From positions 1 through 45,064 of the forward strand of contig DAOTZS010000133.1 of assembly GCA_034434335.1 (NCBI GenBank): 45,064 nt of DNA, in the 5' to 3' direction. Within the stretch, counting starts at the first letter, position 1; each line of letters opens with the position of its first letter. The notes under the pieces were generated by a model. It made no database searches. It was given only the letters and a program-made list of their open reading frames with translations, and was not told the origin of the DNA. The position numbers and the translations under genes were made by a program. The DNA comes from Anaerolineae bacterium. Its GTDB lineage: Bacteria; Chloroflexota; Anaerolineae; CG2-30-64-16. Positions 2,787 through 43,390 of the stretch are shown here, piece after piece.

Positions 2787-3536
2787 ATGGCGAGCGATTT
2801 GCCGCTCAGAGAACGTTATCCTCAGGTCACGCGTGTACCCTATCACGTGGGCATCATCATGGATGGCAATGGGCGCTGGGCCCAAGCCCGCGGCCTGCCG
2901 CGCCTGGCCGGGCACAGGGCCGGCACGGAGAATATCCGGCGCGTCCTGCGGGCCGCCACTGAGTTCGGCATCAAAGTGCTGACGATCTATGCCTTCTCCA
3001 CCGAAAACTGGGCCCGTCCGCCCGACGAGGTTGCCGGCCTGATGAACTTGCTGGACCAGGTCATCCAACGCGAGACCAAAGAGTTGCATGCGCACGGAGT
3101 GTGTATCCGCCACAGCGGCCGGCTGGAAGGGATCGCACCCAGTTTGCAGCGTCAGATCCGGGCCGCGGTAGATCTCACCTGCAAGAACGAGCGCATCATT
3201 TTGAATGTGGCCTTCAACTACGGCGGCCGCGCGGAGATCGTGGATGCCGTACGGCAGATCATCCGGGACGGCTACGCGCCTGAAGCCGTGACCGAAGAAC
3301 TGATCTCGCGCTATCTTTACACGGGCGACCTGCCCGACCCTGACCTGATCATCCGGACCGGTGGGGAGTATCGCCTGAGTAACTTCCTGATCTGGCAGGC
3401 CGCCTATGCCGAGTACTATTCGACCCCTACTTTTTGGCCCGATTTCGACGAGGCCGAATTGGCAGCCGCGCTGGCGGAGTACAGTCAGCGCGAGCGTCGT
3501 TTCGGCAGAGTCCCCGCGCCTACCAGCAAAGGTTAG
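2787..3536 (+). CDS. uppS: Isoprenyl transferase / undecaprenyl diphosphate synthase
   Basis: [22 protein letters not shown] and [23 protein letters not shown] motifs of cis-prenyltransferases. ATG 2787 is preceded by AAAGAGGA. GTG 2751 is an alternative start. Confidence 0.92.
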
Positions 3537-3539
3537 CAG

Positions 3540-4403
3540 TTGCCCGACGCAACCTCGCAGAGTTGCTTCTCAGCCAGCGTACGGAGAGCTGTTGTGCTGC
3601 GTGCCCGCCTGCTCAGCGCAGTTGTTCTGATACCGGTTATCTTCTGGCTCGTCTACCTGGGGGGCATCCCCTGGCTGATCACCGTCCTCCTGGTGGGCAT
3701 CCAGGCGTGGCGTGAGATGGTACAGCTCCTGCAGCGCGATCATTTTACCCTGGACCGCAACCTGGGGCTGTTTTTCGTAATCGGAGCCGTAGCCGAGGCA
3801 TACGTCTATGCCGCCGGGCTGGTACCCGTAGATCTGCTCCGGCCCCTGCTGGCCGGGCTCATCATCTTCTCCCTGGTCTGGGCCCTCTACAACAAAGGGG
3901 CCCATCCCACTGCTGATTGGGGGGTGACCGTCGCCAGCGCGCTCTACCTGGGTTTCCTGCTCAGCCATTTTGTGCTCTTGCGCCAGCGGCCTGAGGGGTT
4001 TCGTTGGGTTCTGTTGGCCCTTTCTATTTCATGGGTGACCGATTCGGTGGCCTATTTCGTGGGCAGTACCTGGGGCAAGCGGCCGCTGTGGCCACGTATC
4101 AGCCCGAAGAAGACCTGGGAAGGGCTGATGGCCGGTTCCCTGGCAGCACTTGTGTTCACCCCTATAGTCAGCAGTTGGTGGCTGGGGCTGAGCCCCTGGC
4201 AGGGGTTGCTCTTGGGTGCGCTGGCAGCAGTTGCGGACCCCTTTGGAGATTTCGCCGTCTCGTTGTTCAAACGGCTGGCGCGCACTAAGGATAGCAGCCA
4301 GTTGATCCCTGGCCATGGCGGCATCCTCGACCGCCTTGATAGCCTGCTTTTTGTCTTTCCCCTGGTGACTTACTTTGCCTGGATTGTCAGCGGCTTACGA
4401 TAG
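3540..4403 (+). CDS. cdsA: Phosphatidate cytidylyltransferase
   Basis: Multi-pass membrane protein with the CdsA signature SLFKRLARTKDSSQLIPGHGGILDRLDS. Start codon (TTG 3540) is uncertain. Confidence 0.9.
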   Translation: MPDATSQSCFSASVRRAVVLRARLLSAVVLIPVIFWLVYLGGIPWLITVLLVGIQAWREMVQLLQRDHFTLDRNLGLFFVIGAVAEAYVYAAGLVPVDLLRPLLAGLIIFSLVWALYNKGAHPTADWGVTVASALYLGFLLSHFVLLRQRPEGFRWVLLALSISWVTDSVAYFVGSTWGKRPLWPRISPKKTWEGLMAGSLAALVFTPIVSSWWLGLSPWQGLLLGALAAVADPFGDFAVSLFKRLARTKDSSQLIPGHGGILDRLDSLLFVFPLVTYFAWIVSGLR

Positions 4404-4510
4404 GACGCTTCATCGCTCGCGTCTGATCCGCCTTATACAGCGATAGGCAAATGGTCGAGAAGGGTATGGCAACGAGTTGCCAGATGGGCAACCATCGGCC
4501 TTAGACAAAC

Positions 4511-4545
4511 AAGAGGCCCGTCTCTTGATCTCAGACGGGCCTCTT
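4511..4545. terminator. Hairpin between convergent cdsA and the nuclease gene (likely bidirectional terminator)
   Basis: AAGAGGCCCGTCT-CTTGATCTC-AGACGGGCCTCTT, a 13-bp perfect stem. A T-rich tail is present only on the minus-strand reading (TTGTTTGT). Confidence 0.55.
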
Positions 4546-4570
4546 GCGTGTCCCTGGCCACTGGCCAGCA

Positions 4571-5386
4571 TTATTCGCCATGGTAGACAAGAGTAATGCC
4601 CAGTTCCCGACAACGCTCTCGCACCTCGTCACCGATGCTCATGGCGATCATAATGCCCTCTACTTCGACGCCAGGATTGAGCGAGCGAACAAGGGTGACC
4701 TTATCAGCCAGGCGGTCGACATCCTCCCACTCGCAGTAGCTCTTGACCTCGAAAACCGATATCTTCCCGTCCTGAGCCAGGATGTCGATCTCAAAATGCC
4801 GCTGGCCTGGCAATCCCACTACACCCTTTTCGTCCACGATCCTCTGGCGTAACCGAATCTGTTCAGGCTTGATGTCGGAACGGCGCAGCGCTACTCGTAG
4901 CGCACCGGCCACTACCTCTTCTAGCTTGCGCCCCGAACGCCGTTGCAGCCCTCCAACGGTAAGCTCTACCCAATCGTGCTCGTCCGCTATCATCTGGCGA
5001 AGGGCAGCAAACTGCTGATCAATCCCCTCGAAGCGTCGGTCAATCCCCTCGAAGCGTCGGTCAATCCCCTCGAAGCGCCTGTCTATCTCTTCGAAGCGTC
5101 GGTCAATCTGCTCAAAGCGCTTGTCAATTTGCTCGAAGCGCCTGTCTATCTCTTCGAAGCGTCGGTCAATCTGCTCGAAGCGCTCCTGGGTCTCCTGGCG
5201 GAAATGGCGCACTTCGCCGCGCAACTCCCGCAGTTCGCTGAGAACGGCCGCGAACTCCTCCTTGCTGACAAACGCCTTCAGAAAGGCTCGAAAGGCGCGC
5301 GGCTCCAGTTCCGGATTGCGCTCTAGCATATCCGGCAATTGCACCTCGAGGATATACAGGACTTCTTCATCCTTCAGTTTCAGCAT
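4571..5386 (-). CDS. PD-(D/E)XK nuclease-fold protein (DUF1626/PDDEXK_10-like C-terminus) with an N-terminal DUF3782-like coiled coil built from tandem heptads
   Basis: C-terminus has a D...E-x-K arrangement (HFEIDILAQDGKISVFEVKSY). The middle is FEQIDRR FEEIDRR FEQIDKR FEQIDRR FEEIDRR FEGIDRR FEGIDRR FEGIDQQ. Start moved to ATG 5386 (AAGGAG RBS), which lies downstream of a strong promoter at 5421-5449. The upstream 41 codons of ORF 4571..5509 would precede that promoter. Confidence 0.75.
   Translation of the reverse strand: MLKLKDEEVLYILEVQLPDMLERNPELEPRAFRAFLKAFVSKEEFAAVLSELRELRGEVRHFRQETQERFEQIDRRFEEIDRRFEQIDKRFEQIDRRFEEIDRRFEGIDRRFEGIDRRFEGIDQQFAALRQMIADEHDWVELTVGGLQRRSGRKLEEVVAGALRVALRRSDIKPEQIRLRQRIVDEKGVVGLPGQRHFEIDILAQDGKISVFEVKSYCEWEDVDRLADKVTLVRSLNPGVEVEGIMIAMSIGDEVRERCRELGITLVYHGE
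5019..5186. repeat. Eight tandem 21-bp units (with 63-bp higher-order periodicity) inside the nuclease gene
   Basis: Units TCAATCCCCTCGAAGCGTCGG (x2 identical), TCAATCCCCTCGAAGCGCCTG, TCTATCTCTTCGAAGCGTCGG, TCAATCTGCTCAAAGCGCTTG, TCAATTTGCTCGAAGCGCCTG, TCTATCTCTTCGAAGCGTCGG, TCAATCTGCTCGAAGCGCTCC. They encode the FExIDRR heptads on the minus strand. Confidence 0.95.
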
Positions 5387-10075: not shown

Positions 10076-12112
10076 TCACCAGCCGGCCAGGGTGCCGAGC
10101 TGGTAAACCATGCTGCCCGCCGCCAGTGACAGCACCAGCAACAGGCCGATGCTCGCGAGCGCCCAGCGCCAGGAGCCGGTCTCCTGCTTGATAGTGACAG
10201 TAGTGGCCAGGCAAGGCACGAACAACATCACCACCACCAGAAAAGCCATACGAGCCGCAGGTGTCAACAGCTCCGACACCTGCTCGGCCAGTCCGGTAAC
10301 CCCTTCGCCCGTGCCATAGAGGATGCCGAGGGTCGCGATGGTGTTCTCTTTGGCGAAAAAGCTGGTCAGCAGCGCCACGATGATGCGCCAGTCACCCAAC
10401 CCCATCAGCCGGCCTGCTGGCTCGAGCCAGCGGCCCACGATGGCCAGGACGCTCTGATCCACCCCGCGGCCTGGCAGGGTCGAAAGCGCCCATACTGCCA
10501 CGGAAGCGATCAGGATCAGCGAGCCGGCCTTCCTGACAAAAGCCAGGGTATTGTTCCACACATAAAGACCTACTGTCCGGGTGTTGGGCATGTGATATAA
10601 CGGCAATTCCATGATAAAAGCTGTATGTTCTCCCTTGAAGGCCAGGTTATGGATGGCCGAGCCGACACCGGCCAATACCAGCAAGTTGGCGGCCACCAGA
10701 AGCCACGACACCACTGTAGCCTGGGCGCCGAAAAAGGCTGGAGCCAGGAAGGCGATAACAGCCATGCGCGCCGTACACGGCACGAGAGGGGCCAATAGCA
10801 CGGTGAGCAGCCGGCCGCGGCGCTCCTCAATAATGCGGGTGCCCAGGACCGCCGGCACATTGCAGCCGAACCCCAGGAAAAGGGGCAGAAACGACTTGCC
10901 ATGCAGCCCCATCAGGTGCATGAAGCGGTCCATCACGTAGGCGCCGCGGGCCAGGTAGCCAATATCTTCCAGCACGGCCAGCATGGCAAAGAAGACCAGC
11001 AGGATGGGCAGGAAAGCCAGCACGGTGCCCACGCCGTGGATCAACCCATCGGACACCAGGCCATACAGCCAGGCCGGCGCGCCGGCCAGGGCCCTCCCGG
11101 CCCAGGCGTCCAGGGCACCCAACACCTCGGAAGAGAGCCAGTCGGCCAGGGGGGTGGCCAGAGTATAGGTCAACCAGAATACAACCCCGAAAATCCCCAA
11201 CAACAGGACCAGCCCCCAGAACGGATGGGTGGCAATGCGGTCGAGGCGGTCGGTGCTGGTAATAATGCCCACCTTGGGCTGGGTGACCGCGGCCCGCACC
11301 ATACGGCTGATCCACTCGTAGCGGCCGCCGGCGATGTCCAGGTAGGCGTCCTCATGTTGCATCAGGATCTCATGCACGCGGGCCCAGGCCTCAGCGGGAA
11401 GCGCCTTTTCCATCAGAGCTGTGATCTCGCTATCCCCCTCCAGCAGCTTGAGGGCCACCCATTCTGCCGGGTAGTTGGCCGGCACATGGCCGGCGATCAG
11501 CTCCAGCATCTCGGCCAGCACCGGCTCATGCTCGGGCCGGATGACCGGCCGGCTGGGGTGCCAGGCGTGGGGAGCGGACGCCAGCTCAAGCGCCGCCTCT
11601 ACCAGCTCGCGCACCCCCTGATTGCGGGATGCCACCAGCGGCACGACCGGCAGCCCTAAGGCCGCCTCTAACACGTGCGGCTCCACCCGGATCCCCTGCT
11701 GGGCTGCCACATCCCCCATATTCAGACCGATAACCAGGGGCAGGTTGAGAGCCAGCAGTTCAGCGACCAGGTACAGGCTCCGTTCCAGGGCAGCCGCGTT
11801 GACGATGGCTACCACGACATCCGGCCTTTCGTGGATCAGGTAGTCGCGGGCAATACGCTCCTCTTCTGAATTCGCCGTCAGGCTGTAAGTGCCCGGCAGG
11901 TCCACCAGGTTGATGATAATCCCGTCGTGGCGATACGTGCCAACCTTCTGCTCAATCGTCTTGCCCGGCCAGTTGCCCACATGCTGATTGAGCCCCGTGA
12001 GCATGTTGAAAACCGTGCTCTTGCCCACATTGGGCTGGCCGGCCAGCGCTATGGTAAGCTGGCCAGGTTTTTGAATGGTGGTGCTCCCGGCGCTGTCGTG
12101 GCAATTGCTCAT
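10076..12112 (-). CDS. feoB: Ferrous iron transporter FeoB
   Basis: N-terminal G-domain (IALAGQPNVGKSTVFN, DLPGTYSL) followed by a polytopic permease. Start set to ATG 12112 (GGGAG RBS); ORF-track start 12148 is possible. Confidence 0.95.
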   Translation of the reverse strand: MSNCHDSAGSTTIQKPGQLTIALAGQPNVGKSTVFNMLTGLNQHVGNWPGKTIEQKVGTYRHDGIIINLVDLPGTYSLTANSEEERIARDYLIHERPDVVVAIVNAAALERSLYLVAELLALNLPLVIGLNMGDVAAQQGIRVEPHVLEAALGLPVVPLVASRNQGVRELVEAALELASAPHAWHPSRPVIRPEHEPVLAEMLELIAGHVPANYPAEWVALKLLEGDSEITALMEKALPAEAWARVHEILMQHEDAYLDIAGGRYEWISRMVRAAVTQPKVGIITSTDRLDRIATHPFWGLVLLLGIFGVVFWLTYTLATPLADWLSSEVLGALDAWAGRALAGAPAWLYGLVSDGLIHGVGTVLAFLPILLVFFAMLAVLEDIGYLARGAYVMDRFMHLMGLHGKSFLPLFLGFGCNVPAVLGTRIIEERRGRLLTVLLAPLVPCTARMAVIAFLAPAFFGAQATVVSWLLVAANLLVLAGVGSAIHNLAFKGEHTAFIMELPLYHMPNTRTVGLYVWNNTLAFVRKAGSLILIASVAVWALSTLPGRGVDQSVLAIVGRWLEPAGRLMGLGDWRIIVALLTSFFAKENTIATLGILYGTGEGVTGLAEQVSELLTPAARMAFLVVVMLFVPCLATTVTIKQETGSWRWALASIGLLLVLSLAAGSMVYQLGTLAGW

Positions 12113-12417: not shown

Positions 12418-12430
12418 GGCTCCCTCCGTT

Positions 12431-12622
12431 GTAACTATTCAGGCGGTGACTGGAAGTCACCCTTTTGGGCCTGCGGCCAGTGGTCGGCCTTCGCCGACCT
12501 CTCTGGTGATGCACAAATAAAGGGTGACGGCCTCCGCCGACACCCCTCGGGCCGAGCCCTTCGGGGCGAGGCCTGGCACAAAGTGCCCAGGGAGGGCGAT
12601 TTCAATCGGCCTGAATAGTTAC
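12431..12622 (-). mobile_element. MITE-like structured element, copy 1 (192 bp, 14-bp TIR GTAACTATTCAGGC)
   Basis: Its reverse complement aligns end to end with 36484..36701. Terminal inverted repeats GTAACTATTCAGGC / GCCTGAATAGTTAC. No ORF of its own. Fills the fur-feoA spacer. Confidence 0.85.
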
Positions 12623-13078
12623 CCTCCCCTGTGCCTTCCGGTCACCACGGCAACTCTCGCACCACCCATAGAAGGTGAGCGAGGCGCGCTCGATGACGAC
12701 CTGGTGCTGTTGACAGAATTGTAATCTGATCCTCTCCACCTCCGGCGATTCGAACTCGATCACCTGGCCGCAACCGACACAGACGAAATGGAAATGCTCA
12801 CCTCGCGGCGAGGGTTCAAAGCGCTCGCTGCGGTCGCCCGGGCCGGCTCTCAACTGTCGCGGCCGTACCAATCCCGCATCTGCCAACCAGCTCAGAGTGC
12901 GGTAGACTGTGGAAGGATTGATGGTCGGCACCCGTTGGCGTGCTGCATTGTAGACTTGTTCCGCGGTAGGATGCCCACCCAGCGCATCCAATGTCTCCAG
13001 GATCAGCCGGCGCTGGGCTGTCATCCGCCCGCCGTTGGCCCGTAACGCCGCGGTGGCCCGAGATAACAGGCTGCCCAT
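12602..13078 (-). CDS. fur: Fur-family transcriptional regulator; last 6 codons and the stop lie inside a repeat element
   Basis: RMTAQRRLILETL, PSTVYRTLSWLADAGLV, HFHFVCVGCG and WCESC motifs of Fur-family proteins. Metal specificity (Fur vs Zur or PerR) is not determinable from sequence. Confidence 0.9.
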   Translation of the reverse strand: MGSLLSRATAALRANGGRMTAQRRLILETLDALGGHPTAEQVYNAARQRVPTINPSTVYRTLSWLADAGLVRPRQLRAGPGDRSERFEPSPRGEHFHFVCVGCGQVIEFESPEVERIRLQFCQQHQVVIERASLTFYGWCESCRGDRKAQGRVTIQAD

Positions 13079-13095: not shown

Positions 13096-13120
13096 CTTAT
13101 TGCAAGTGACTTGCAGTAAG
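13096..13120. promoter_or_regulatory. 25-bp near-perfect palindrome immediately upstream of fur (candidate operator)
   Basis: CTTATTGCAAGT-G-ACTTGCAGTAAG lies 18-42 nt upstream of the fur ATG (13078), so it is expected to overlap the fur promoter. Confidence 0.4.
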
Positions 13121-13292
13121 CATACGCCGACGAAGCCGCGCTGTCTATGATGGAGATCACATGGGTTGGCCGAGAAGCGCGGGAAGGGGGTATCCTTCTT
13201 GGTCTGGCCAGGAGTCATCGGAGGAAGGCAGTCTGTGGAGAAGGGGGATTATAGGGGGGCCCAAGGGGTGGTTCGGAGGAGACTCCTCGACC

Positions 13293-21510: not shown

Positions 21511-21798
21511 GGGTGCGGGTCAATCCGCACAGTGTAGAAACCCCCTTAACTCGACACTAGTGCCGTGTTAAGCTAGATTCTGGCATTTTGCAGTCAGTGC
21601 GTTACCCCTCTCACCCCCTTTCCCCCGCTCTCCCCTCCCAGGGGAGAGCGGGGGAAATCCCAAGTGTGGGGGTTTCTGGGGCGGCGAAGCCGCCCCAGAA
21701 ACCCCCTTAATACCGATCTCCCCGCCCCCTGATAGGGGGCGGGGCCGGGGGTGGGGGTCAATCCGGAAAGTGTAGAATCCAGCTTTACAAAGCACTAG
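21511..21798. repeat. Hairpin-module element flanked by ~50-bp imperfect direct repeats
   Basis: Direct repeats GGGTGCGGGTCAATCCGCACAGTGTAGAAA...CACTAG (21511-21560) and GGGTGGGGGTCAATCCGGAAAGTGTAGAAT...CACTAG (21748-21798). Core hairpins CCCCCGCTCTCCCC-TCCCA-GGGGAGAGCGGGGG, GGGGGTTTCTGGGGCGGC-GAA-GCCGCCCCAGAAACCCCC and CCCCGCCCCC-TGATA-GGGGGCGGGG. Confidence 0.75.
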
Positions 21799-25267: not shown

Positions 25268-25496
25268 CTTTCTGTCTCCCTGGGCCTTCACTGCCCCTCA
25301 CCCCCTCTACCCCTCGGGACGTGGCCCTTGGCCTGCGGCCATGGGAGAAGGAAGAATAAACAAGAGAGGTTTTTGTGACGGCGGCCAAGGGCCACCGTCA
25401 CAAAAACCCTTTTCTCCTCCTCTCCTCTCCTGCCGCCAAAGGCGAGCGGGAGAGGAGAGGGGGCAGAGGGAGAGGTAAGGGCCTTGAGCGGCAGCT
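25268..25496 (-). repeat. Three-hairpin compound repeat, copy in the metY-metX intercistronic spacer
   Basis: Its reverse complement aligns with 39421..39641 across an outer stem plus three internal hairpins. Conserved loops CGCTCGCCTTTGGCGGCA and TGGCCGCAGGCCAAGG. Confidence 0.85.
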
Positions 25497-27023: not shown

Positions 27024-27146
27024 CTCTCATCTTCCAGATCAAGTCTGCCGGAATTGGCACCCTAACGTAGCACAGGCCTCATTGCCATGTCTTACCGGGT
27101 TGCCGAGGCTTCATTGGGCCGGTCCCTCTGCCTCTCTGGATAAGAG
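27024..27146 (-). promoter_or_regulatory. SAM-I (S-box) riboswitch aptamer upstream of metY
   Basis: Minus-strand reading is CUCUUAUCCAGAGAGGCAGAGGGACCGGCCCAAUGAAGCCUCGGCAACC...GGUGCCAAUUCCGGCAGA...GGAAGAUGAGAG. This matches the SAM-I consensus, including P1 CUCUUAUC/GAUGAGAG. Confidence 0.88.
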
Positions 27147-36483: not shown

Positions 36484-36701
36484 GTAATTATTCAGGCCGA
36501 TTGAAATCGCCCTCCCTGGGCACCTCGTGCCAGGCCTCGCCCCGAAGGGCTCGGCCCGAGGGGTGTCGGCGGAGGCCGACACCCCTCATGTGTGCATCAC
36601 CAGAGAGCAGCGAAGGCCGACCTCTGGCCGCAGGCCCCAAGAGGGTGACGCCTCGGGCGAGCCCTCGGCGTGGCCCTTCCAGTCACCGCCTGAATAGTTA
36701 C
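36484..36701 (+). mobile_element. MITE-like structured element, copy 2 (218 bp; 25-bp internal insertion relative to copy 1)
   Basis: GTAATTATTCAGGC...GCCTGAATAGTTAC. High identity to copy 1 by eye, with differences concentrated in hairpin loops. Located in the cstA leader. Confidence 0.85.
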
Positions 36702-36838: not shown

Positions 36839-38590
36839 ATGAACGCGATCTTTGTGTTGGTGCTGGCCGCCATCGGTATCGTCGTTGGCTATGGCGTCTA
36901 TGCCAAAGGTATTGACCGACGCATTATCCAGCCTGATCCCTCCAAAGCCACGCCTGCCAGGATGTATATGGACGGTGTGGACTTCATCCCCGCCAACCGT
37001 AATGTCCTCTTCGGCTACCAGTTCAAGTCCATCGCCGCCCTGGGTCCCATCCTGGGGCCGATCATCGCCGTCCAGTGGGGTTGGCTCCCGGCGCTGCTGT
37101 GGATCATCCTGGGCACCTTCTTCATCGGCTGGGTCCAGGACTACTCCAGCATCATCATGGGAGTCCGGGAGGAGGGGCAGACCTTCGGCGCCCTCAGTTA
37201 CCGCCTCATCTCCCCCCGGGCTCGCAACATCCTGCTGGCCTTCATCTACGTCTACCTCCTGATGATCATGGGTGCCTTCGGCATCCAGGTAGGTTTTAAT
37301 CTGCTCACCAACCCGGCCGTGCCCCTGGGGGTGATCATCGTCATCCTGGCAGGTCTGCTGGCCGGCCAGATGACCTACAAGTGGAAGCAGGACATCATCC
37401 TGACCACGGTGGTCACGGTGGTCGTGGCACTGATCGGCGTATGGGTGGGGACGCTGCCAGGGGTGAAGAATCTCTTCAATGCCATCTACGGCATCCAGAT
37501 GGTAGAAGGAAAGCCGGTCTCGCCTACCCTCTTCCTCCAGGTAACCCAGGCGCGCTTCATCGGCAGTTTGTTGGTGGTCATCTTCTGCTACCTGGGTGCC
37601 GTGCTGCCCATCTGGCGGTGGGCTCAGCCCATCAACTATGTCGCCTTCTGGATCGTCCTCCTGGGGATCCTGGGCGGCATCATTGGGCTCTTGATCGGAC
37701 ATCCTGGGATGGGAGACTTCCCGGCTGCCACAACATTCGTGACTGCCTCCGGACCCCTCTGGCCGATGTTGTTCGTGACCATCGCCTGTGGGGCCATCTC
37801 CGGCTGGCATAGCCTGGTCTCCTCGTCGGGTACAGCGCGTCAGTTGGAGAAGGAGACGGATGCCCTCTATGTGGGCGGCGGGGCCATGTTCCTGGAGATG
37901 GTCTTTGCCACCATTGCTTTCCTCACAGCCACCGTTGCCTTTGGCAGCTTCAAGGGGTATCAGGATGCCGGCGGTCCAGGGGCGGCGGCGGCCGTCTTCT
38001 CCAAGGGCCTCTCGGTCTTCCTGAACAACTGGGGGTTGGACAGCGCCTTGGGCCAGGGCTTCGGCGTGGCTTACGGCTCGGTGTTCCTCACCCTGATGGC
38101 GATGACCATCATGCACCTGGTGGTGCGCTTCATGCGGGTGGCCAGCGCCGAGGCGTTGGGCGACCGCTTCCCTGTCCTGCGCAACATCCACGTGGGCACC
38201 ATCATCGCCCTGGTCCTCACTCTCTTCCTGATCTGGATTGTGCCCTTCCTGCAGATCTGGGGCGTCTTTGGCGCGGCTAACCAGTTGATGGCCTCCCTGG
38301 CCCTGCTCCTCATCACCCTGTGGCTGATGTCAAAGGCCAAGAACTACCAGTGGACCTTCTGGCCCTTCGTCTTCATGTTCGTCACCACCGTGTTCGCGCT
38401 GCTCTGGTCGGCCTATGCGGCCTTCTTCCTCAATCTGCCCAAGCAGACGGGCTGGCAAGGTATCGTTGCCCAGGTGACCATCGGGGTGCTGGCCCTGCTG
38501 TTGGTGGTGCTGGCCGTGGTCCTGGTGGTGGATGGCATCGGGTCTATCCAGCGCTATCGGGCGGAGATGGCCAAGGCGGCGAGCCGGTAA
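36839..38590 (+). CDS. cstA: Carbon starvation protein A family transporter
   Basis: N-terminus ...VLFGYQFKSIAALGPILGPIIAVQWGWLPALLWIILGTFFIGWVQDY is a CstA hallmark. 583-aa polytopic protein. Confidence 0.92.
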   Translation: MNAIFVLVLAAIGIVVGYGVYAKGIDRRIIQPDPSKATPARMYMDGVDFIPANRNVLFGYQFKSIAALGPILGPIIAVQWGWLPALLWIILGTFFIGWVQDYSSIIMGVREEGQTFGALSYRLISPRARNILLAFIYVYLLMIMGAFGIQVGFNLLTNPAVPLGVIIVILAGLLAGQMTYKWKQDIILTTVVTVVVALIGVWVGTLPGVKNLFNAIYGIQMVEGKPVSPTLFLQVTQARFIGSLLVVIFCYLGAVLPIWRWAQPINYVAFWIVLLGILGGIIGLLIGHPGMGDFPAATTFVTASGPLWPMLFVTIACGAISGWHSLVSSSGTARQLEKETDALYVGGGAMFLEMVFATIAFLTATVAFGSFKGYQDAGGPGAAAAVFSKGLSVFLNNWGLDSALGQGFGVAYGSVFLTLMAMTIMHLVVRFMRVASAEALGDRFPVLRNIHVGTIIALVLTLFLIWIVPFLQIWGVFGAANQLMASLALLLITLWLMSKAKNYQWTFWPFVFMFVTTVFALLWSAYAAFFLNLPKQTGWQGIVAQVTIGVLALLLVVLAVVLVVDGIGSIQRYRAEMAKAASR

Positions 38591-38960: not shown

Positions 38961-39182
38961 GTCATTTGACAGGAGTTACGCACTTTGAGGCGTATCGCCC
39001 CATCCCTCTACCCTCTTGCCCGCAAGGCGGGGAAGAGGGATCGAGATTATAAGGGGTATTCCTGGGCGGCTTCGCCGCCCAGGAATACCCCTTTCAAAGG
39101 ATTCCCCCGCCCCCGATCGGGCGCGGGGGCCAGGAGGTGGGGGCACAGCGTAGTGCAACTGCATAACTCCTGTCATTTGACA
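38961..39182 (+). repeat. TIR-bounded hairpin element (TIR GACAGGAGTTAYGCA), copy A
   Basis: Left end GTCATTTGACAGGAGTTACGCA. Right end TGCATAACTCCTGTCATTTGACA. Central hairpin GGGGTATTCCTGGGCGGC-TTC-GCCGCCCAGGAATACCCC. Its reverse complement aligns with 43228..43390. Confidence 0.8.
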
Positions 39183-39420: not shown

Positions 39421-39641
39421 ACTGCCGCCCAGGGCCCTCACCCCTCCCTCTGTCCCTCCCCTCCCCCGCTCGCCTTTGGCGGCAGGGGAGGGGAGGAGAG
39501 AAAAGGGTTTTTGCGGCGGCGGCCTTCGGCCGCCGCCGCAAAAACCCCCTCTTATTCCCCCCTCTCCCCTGGCCGCAGGCCAAGGGGAGAGGGGGGAATA
39601 AGAGGGGGTGAGGGGCAGTGACGGCCCGAGGGAGCAGAAAG
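39421..39641 (+). repeat. Three-hairpin compound repeat, copy in the hisZ leader
   Basis: Outer stem GCCCTCACCCCTC.../...GAGGGGGTGAGGGGC. Hairpins CCTCCCCTCCCC-loop-GGGGAGGGGAGG, GGGTTTTTGCGGCGGCGGCC-TTC-GGCCGCCGCCGCAAAAACCC and CTCTTATTCCCCCCTCTCCCC-TGGCCGCAGGCCAA-GGGGAGAGGGGGGAATAAGAG. Confidence 0.85.
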
Positions 39642-43227: not shown

Positions 43228-43390
43228 AGGAGTTACGCAGTTGCACTACGCTGTGCCCCCACCCCCAATTAGCCCCCACCCTCTGGGGGCGGGAGAATCC
43301 TTTGAAAAGGGTATTCTGGGCGGCTTCGCCGTCCAGAATACCCTATAATCTCGATCCCCTTTCCGCGTCTTGCGGGGAAGGGGGTAATAG
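43228..43390 (-). repeat. TIR-bounded hairpin element, copy B (one end degenerate, overlapping the HAD gene 3' end)
   Basis: AGGAGTTACGCAGTTGCACTACGCTGTGCCCCCACC...AGGGTATTCTGGGCGGCTTCGCCGTCCAGAATACCCT...CCCCTTTCCGCGTCTTGCGGGGAAGGGG is collinear with the reverse complement of copy A. Confidence 0.8.

Follow-up and report, generated by a model that had tools for sequence, protein, structure and literature searches.

The gap between fur and feoA in the stretch of DNA analysed here (45,064 nucleotides, referred to as the window) is very probably the result of a non-autonomous transposon (MITE) inserting into the last codons of fur, at the place where this gene overlapped feoA by ATGA. Some of the consequences can be read directly from the sequence, while others are presumed. 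According to this scenario, a MITE of a Chloroflexota family, characterized by 14-bp terminal repeats, 8-bp duplications and a modular hairpin interior, entered an ancestral fur-feoA-feoB operon in which fur and feoA shared the ATGA overlap. The 8-bp target AGGGGAGG included the Shine-Dalgarno sequence of feoA, and through its duplication an apparently functional GGAGG is still present, as far from the feoA ATG as the native one. As the duplicated target contains GGAGG, feoA kept a ribosome-binding site. At the other side, the terminal repeat supplied an in-frame stop six codons in, with both genes remaining intact. The Fur tail changed from -EP to -VTIQAD, and the fur stop and the feoA start moved from a 4-nt overlap to a distance of 184 nt.

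The element between fur and feoA

In the initial annotation, the fur-feoA gap had been assigned to a 192-bp MITE-like element with perfect 14-bp terminal inverted repeats, and both ends indeed matched GTAACTATTCAGGC with 0 mismatches (Table 1). Allowing up to two mismatches, this sequence was found at four sites in the window, corresponding to both ends of both copies of the element; the shuffle control gave a mean of 0.08 sites, and four sites were reached in 0/100 shuffles. Copy 1 contains the optional hairpin module A (12547-12574), lacks the optional module B and shows 6.8% divergence from the family consensus. The longest open reading frame lying wholly within it comprises 56 amino acids. 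The earlier description of a highly structured insert is in line with the folding predictions, which gave -107.6 and -108.5 kcal/mol on its two strands (z = -7.0 and -7.6 compared to shuffled sequences) and a long branched hairpin for either strand. For the element, Rfam searches of the window and of 17 related loci returned nothing at gathering score, and the search with the element itself yielded sub-threshold noise only.

Based on the fur reading frame, the 3′ end of the gene is GTA ACT ATT CAG GCC GAT TGA (V-T-I-Q-A-D-stop). The Fur C-terminus reads ...QGR-VTIQAD-TGA, and its final 21 nt (12602-12622) are located inside copy 1. Since the VTIQAD codons and the stop fall within the right end of copy 1, the last six Fur codons and the TGA are element DNA, confirming their proposed origin from the terminal repeat. 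The opposite end of the element, which had been placed 13 nt before the feoA ATG and next to its ribosome-binding site, was found exactly there: on the minus strand, these 13 nt are AACGGAGGGAGCC and include the GGAGG Shine-Dalgarno sequence of feoA at 12423-12427, 5 nt from the ATG. In the window, fur stop and feoA start are separated by 184 nt.

The identical genes on contig L186 were assigned to the Pfam families FUR, FeoA and FeoB_N/FeoB_C, and both feoA and feoB are intact in the window as well as in L186. Fur harbours the FUR domain (PF01475) together with two CxxC motifs (CVGC and CESC) and matches solved Fur and PerR structures with E-values as low as 2e-19. Among the matches listed, the best FeoB match reached 75% and the best Fur match from species representatives 42%.

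Alignments to the solved Fur/PerR structures end at residues 144-149, just past the second CxxC (C140-C143), and orthologues carry between 2 and ~25 residues behind the last CxxC, with no conservation among them. Because VTIQAD follows this motif, in a region free to vary among orthologues, the altered Fur terminus is probably functionally neutral. With the ATGA overlap ended, the arrangement permitting coupled translation is gone, and translational coupling of feoA to fur would be lost.

Table 1. Coordinates of the element copies, their flanks and the neighbouring genes and signals (window positions unless a contig is named).
Feature	Position	Strand	Remarks
MITE copy 1, non-coding, 192 bp	12431-12622	.	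hairpin modules; 68-copy family alignment
feoA-proximal terminal inverted repeat GTAACTATTCAGGC	12431-12444	+	0 mismatches
fur-proximal terminal inverted repeat GTAACTATTCAGGC	12609-12622	-	0 mismatches; fur frame reads V-T-I-Q-A...
8-bp target-site duplication, feoA-proximal	12423-12430	-	AACGGAGG; 6/8 compared to the other copy; contains GGAGG
8-bp target-site duplication, fur-proximal	12623-12630	-	AGGGGAGG; within fur codons for Q-G-R
fur, 158 aa, PF01475	12602-13078	-	residues 153-158 (VTIQAD) and TGA encoded by the element, 12602-12622
TGA stop of fur	12602-12604	-	within copy 1
feoA, 87 aa, PF04023	12154-12417	-	ORF; Pfam from identical genes in L186
feoB, 678 aa from MSNCH...	10076-12112	-	longer ORF reaches 12148
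Promoter-like site upstream of fur, TAGACA-17-TATGCT	13119-13147	-	sigma-70 scan
Candidate Fur box, 7-1-7 palindrome TGCAAGT-C-ACTTGCA	13101-13115	-	just downstream of the fur promoter-like site
Terminator-like feature, GGGGUGUCGGC-GGAG-GCCGUCACCC hairpin, then UUUAUUUGUG	12512-12546	-	fur/feo sense strand
Outward promoter candidate of the initial annotation, GTGACT-16 nt-ATAGTT	12433-12460	-	weak; conserved part of the family end
MITE copy 2, 218 bp, modules A and B	36484-36701	.	inverted relative to copy 1; intergenic
Nested mobile elements	L251 1090-1702; L207 3286-3470; L318 ~3426-5039		

An empty site and the reconstructed junction

The closest relative of Fur in the protein collection is P0002, encoded on contig L185 and sharing 85% identity. 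This protein comprises 154 amino acids and ends in ...KAQGRNQ before its stop (sequence end ...CSGNRKAQGRNQ), so that the element-free relative does not share the VTIQAD tail. On L185, fur (138-602) and feoA (599-865) overlap by ATGA and the element is absent. The junction reads CAGGGGAGGAACCAATGAGC (also given as CAGGGGAGGAACCAATGAGCAGAGTC), compared to CAGGGGAGG / element / AACGGAGG GAGCCATGAGCAGAGTCC at the corresponding place in the window. The 8-bp flanks of copy 1, CCTCCGTT and CCTCCCCT, are identical at 6/8 positions, and this imperfect duplication is a point against the insertion scenario. Its fur-proximal flank AGGGGAGG equals the single copy in the L185 empty site, whereas the feoA-proximal flank differs at two positions.

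Computational removal of the element together with one 8-bp flank resulted in a Fur of 154 amino acids ending in ...KAQGREP before the stop and in an ATGA overlap with feoA, which are the layout and the Fur length of L185; removal of the element alone led to a 229-aa run-on. These results support the earlier suggestion that the native Fur end and stop were replaced by the insertion, the extent being two codons (reconstructed as E-P; the relative has N-Q) plus the stop. Further copies, 8-bp duplications and an empty site were all found, which substantiates the MITE-like identity.

Alternatively, the element could have been ancestral at this junction and lost from L185 by precise excision, making the VTIQAD tail the older one. 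The presence of only one close empty site, at 85% Fur identity, would be compatible with this order of events. However, element-free junctions, either overlapping or tight, were also detected in several more distant Anaerolineae carrying fur-feoA-feoB (-4 in L383, L431 and L437; -8 in L389), which makes the overlap the older arrangement and the insertion a derived one. In addition, the flanks in the window resemble a decayed 8-bp duplication, the family is young (median divergence from consensus 4.85%), and an excision would have to remove the element and exactly one duplication copy in order to restore a 154-aa Fur with ATGA. We consider a loss from L185 highly improbable.

Many contigs of this locus break within the element, and in L187 fur and the MITE lead into an unrelated fucosidase gene; both observations would also be expected if the junction were an assembly artefact, with a repeat collapsed or chimerically joined between fur and feoA. 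The contig ends inside the element can be attributed to its nature as a repeat. Moreover, the full fur-MITE-feoA-feoB arrangement was recovered at 99.7-100% identity in independent ENA and JGI sample assemblies (L186, L189, L190), the occupied fur-MITE-feoA junction is at least 99.6% identical across assemblies made independently for several samples, and the reading frames, the Shine-Dalgarno sequence and the duplication are those expected of a true insertion. An artefact is extremely improbable on these grounds, and a genuine insertion into the last fur codons is the reading followed below.

On L187 (1801-2080; JGI 3300027515, Ga0209162_1010543), an alpha-L-fucosidase gene takes the place of feoA behind fur and the complete copy-1 MITE, and the distal repeat shows a 1-nt deletion typical of other copies. 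This contig owes its gene order either to chimeric assembly at the repeat or to a genuine rearrangement involving two copies. In some Chloroflexota relatives (P0047, P0095, P0118), Fur and FeoA are fused to proteins of 234-242 amino acids, which points to a labile junction.

Distribution, size and age of the element family

Copy 2 differs from copy 1 by an extra 27-nt hairpin module. It shows one mismatch in a terminal repeat, is located ~138 nt upstream of the open reading frame at 36839-38590 and has 8-bp flanks (GCAACACC and GCAAACCC) identical at 6/8 positions. To cover the subfamily beyond the window, a subfamily-specific end pattern was searched in MAGs and metagenomes. More than 116 loci were obtained from metagenomes, a number representing a lower bound, and nine loci from MAGs, which belong to Anaerolineae (H67_700, H23_313, H23_299), Chloroflexota 626A.7 and Thermoflexus sp. 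RSWP15. The 85 complete copies extracted from these loci show conserved terminal repeats and size classes of ~163, 190 and 220 bp, reflecting the two optional hairpin modules. Identical 8-bp flanks were found in 37/81 complete copies and flanks with up to two mismatches in 58/81, compared to 3/81 with up to two mismatches in a shifted-flank control.

Judged by the low divergence among its sequences, the family is young and has recently expanded. An RNA covariation test revealed one compensatory pair among 53 and a covariation term of -0.1; the copies are too alike for this test to be informative on selection for RNA structure.

Stop codon donation by the terminal repeat to a neighbouring long open reading frame was detected in ~10/86 copies (L195-L317 and the window), the donated stop being TAA (repeat positions 2-4) in some cases and TGA following VTIQAD in others. 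Stop donation is thus recurrent in this MITE family, and, with about one copy in nine donating a stop, annotated C-termini ending in VTIQAD directly before the stop need to be read with this in mind.

We also scanned the species-representative genomes (596 Gb) for the 14-bp end, which resulted mostly in chance matches (~1100 expected). Short elements with the same 14-bp repeat and unrelated interiors were identified in MAGs of Anaerolineae, Thermoflexales, Caldilineales, Ktedonobacterales, Verrucomicrobiota and Bdellovibrionales, including three 184-bp copies bounded by this repeat in Ca. Amarolinea. Many of the elements of other lineages have perfect 8-bp flanks, e.g. GCTCCATA, AATTCGAG, TAAAATCA, CGCGGCGA, AGCCGATC, GCGCAGGA and AAATTTTT.

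The loops of two hairpin modules (window 12522-12545 and 12482-12499) occur in both orientations among the copies, as GCCTCCGCC or GCGGAGGCC and as GGCGAAGGCC or GGCCTTCGCC, and it looks as if whole hairpins had been inverted. Three elements of ~150 nt in the Caldilineales MAG SKW222 (L082 5278-5430, L083 2719-2870, L098 4990-5142) start with the same 14-bp repeat, show no recognisable second repeat, end in ...CGAGCGRCCMATGGSGGKAAGGSAAG and gave no Rfam match.

Search for a parent transposon

A full-length insertion sequence with the same terminal repeat, the possible parent raised in the initial annotation, was not found in the loci or scans examined. Pairs of the terminal repeat spaced 450-6000 bp apart and flanked by a duplication were absent from 2.8 Mb of loci, a scan of viral contigs for a parent element produced chance matches only, and 0.9 Mb of MITE-bearing loci contained no multi-copy protein. 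Unpaired or early-ending copies turned out to be truncated or internally deleted MITEs. In the MAG Dive96_bin10.65, the same repeat introduces a different, AT-richer sequence at the ends of two contigs (L031, L066), and this sequence may be a longer element.

Several candidates were rejected. The pair of terminal repeats in L082, 1415 bp, lies within dnaG and is a chance occurrence, and the protein common to L035 and L090 beside the repeat is accD, next to an aldolase whose coding sequence spells GVTIQAD. An IS701-like transposase (DDE_5/NF041680; L251, L207) occurs in the same metagenomes as the MITE and adjoins a MITE end in L251, but this element, of which a full copy is present in L318 (~3426-5039), has its own terminal repeats CTGGAGTTTAGACTAA; it is an unrelated, nested stranger that inserted into a MITE copy or next to it. 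The IS701-like transposon is itself located inside a second short element with the ends GGGTGTAATCGCTCTTATCTC, which abuts a truncated MITE (Table 1). A TA duplication of the IS630/mariner-like type, prompted by the G-TA-AC ends, was ruled out by the 8-bp duplications.

IS66 elements are described as having terminal repeats of 20-30 bp starting with GTAAGCG and 8-bp direct repeats (PMC11946415, citing TnCentral). Compared to this description, the MITE shares the 8-bp direct repeats and ends beginning with GTAA; however, its repeat comprises 14-16 bp and starts with GTAACTA, leaving only GTAA in common with GTAAGCG. No transposase bounded by this repeat, of the IS66 type or any other, was found in the loci and scans examined, and a relationship of the MITE family to IS66 would be a lead only. 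A more far-reaching interpretation is that the same 14-bp end and the 8-bp duplications are traces of a widespread transposase lineage that has so far escaped notice and recognises its ends in an unusually conserved manner, or of a divergent IS66 branch, and that the copy between fur and feoA was retained as an attenuator separating Fur from Feo dosage. We regard this interpretation as quite improbable.

Predicted effects on the regulation of fur-feoAB

Within the window, the candidate Fur box upstream of fur (Table 1) is the only perfect 7-1-7 match to TGCAA-N5-TTGCA. At the same place in L185 (96-112), just downstream of the fur promoter-like site, a palindrome of the 8-1-8 type was found (TTGCAAAT-A-ATTTGCAA). 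The window scan detected no candidate Fur box before feoA. With the sole candidate at the fur promoter, feoAB would still depend on this promoter, and the read-through RNA would consequently have to cross the very stable structure of the element. The core of the candidate Fur box differs from that of the classical GATAAT type.

On the fur/feo sense strand, copy 1 carries a terminator-like hairpin with a predicted energy of -19.1 kcal/mol, compared to -25.9 kcal/mol in copy 2 and -21.3 kcal/mol in the consensus. In copy 1, the stem contains a mismatch and the tail UUUAUUUGUG is interrupted; it has two extra U relative to the family consensus tail UUCAUGUAUG. Across the family, neither the orientation of the elements with respect to adjacent genes (8 same and 15 opposite in tandem contexts) nor their context was biased, and nothing in this distribution suggests a selected terminator role. 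We therefore regard a partial terminator as a tentative interpretation of this hairpin. Because the structure crossed by read-through includes this hairpin and its U-tract, the output of feoAB relative to fur would probably be lowered or buffered rather than abolished, and the intact state of feoAB after an insertion old enough for fixation argues against severe polarity.

A weak outward promoter had also been proposed at the feoA-proximal end of copy 1. It was not called by the sigma-70 scan, and its ATAGTT matches TATAAT at one position only. The re-wiring of iron control considered in the initial annotation could take a form in which the insertion was co-opted as a regulator, either by attenuation through hairpin and U-tract or by promoter activity of the outward end, and feoAB was freed from Fur autoregulation. 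Such a role would be consistent with the hairpin on the sense strand (about -19 kcal/mol) and the UUUAUUUGUG behind it, with the two substitutions that make the copy 1 tail more U-rich than the consensus, with the lost ATGA coupling and with the fixation of the insertion across samples. However, most of the U-rich character of the tail is common to the family, the two changes may be due to chance, and the copy 1 hairpin is mismatched and less stable than its counterparts in copy 2 and the consensus. The family shows no orientation bias, the promoter candidate was not recovered by the consensus scan and would give transcripts with a leader of only ~10 nt, and the sole candidate Fur box lies upstream of fur. 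Taking both sides into account, co-option as a regulator appears unlikely.

Relation to known bacterial elements

Bacterial MITEs located at gene ends or between operon genes include the Correia elements of Neisseria, the Rickettsia palindromic elements and the enterobacterial ERIC/IRU sequences, which sometimes add residues or a stop to a host protein and are co-transcribed with their neighbours. The family described here resembles them in being short, non-coding, structured, bounded by terminal inverted repeats, present in many copies and located in intergenic regions or at 3′ gene ends. It differs in its repeat sequence, its 8-bp duplication (Correia elements duplicate TA), its optional hairpin modules with flipping loops and its Chloroflexota hosts. 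REP/BIME repeats, which are mobilised by RAYT transposases, are likewise abundant GC-rich hairpin units between genes. However, REPs measure 20-40 bp and have neither long terminal inverted repeats nor a target duplication, while the MITE has both.

In the literature, no published description was found of this repeat in a relevant context or of a Chloroflexota MITE of this kind, and the family is apparently undescribed and abundant in thermophilic Chloroflexota. The insertion of a MITE at a gene junction is an ordinary kind of event. The present case is unusually well documented because an empty site, a duplication explaining the survival of the ribosome-binding site and a repeat supplying the stop come together. 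It represents a soft landing in an overlapping gene pair, with the duplication regenerating the downstream ribosome-binding site, the repeat supplying the upstream stop and neither gene being lost; what has changed is the link between the regulator and the transporter genes of its operon. In addition, metagenome assemblies are interrupted by the MITE family, which may also give rise to chimeric contigs, a point of importance for the binning and annotation of these genomes.

Additional features of the window

The window contains at least three further families of short palindromic repeats rich in GC, with the pairs 25268-25461 and 39446-39641, 39009-39171 and 43228-43386, and 21651-21723 and 39050-39108. 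Some of these palindromic repeats share the hairpin motif GGCCGCAGGCC with the MITE, and one recurs beside a MITE copy in L270. Eight tandem 21-nt repeats, CGAAGCGTCGGTCAATCCCCT-like, are found at 4987-5204 and probably encode a heptad-type protein repeat. Furthermore, a SAM riboswitch (RF00162, 83 bits) is located at 27024-27146 on the minus strand.
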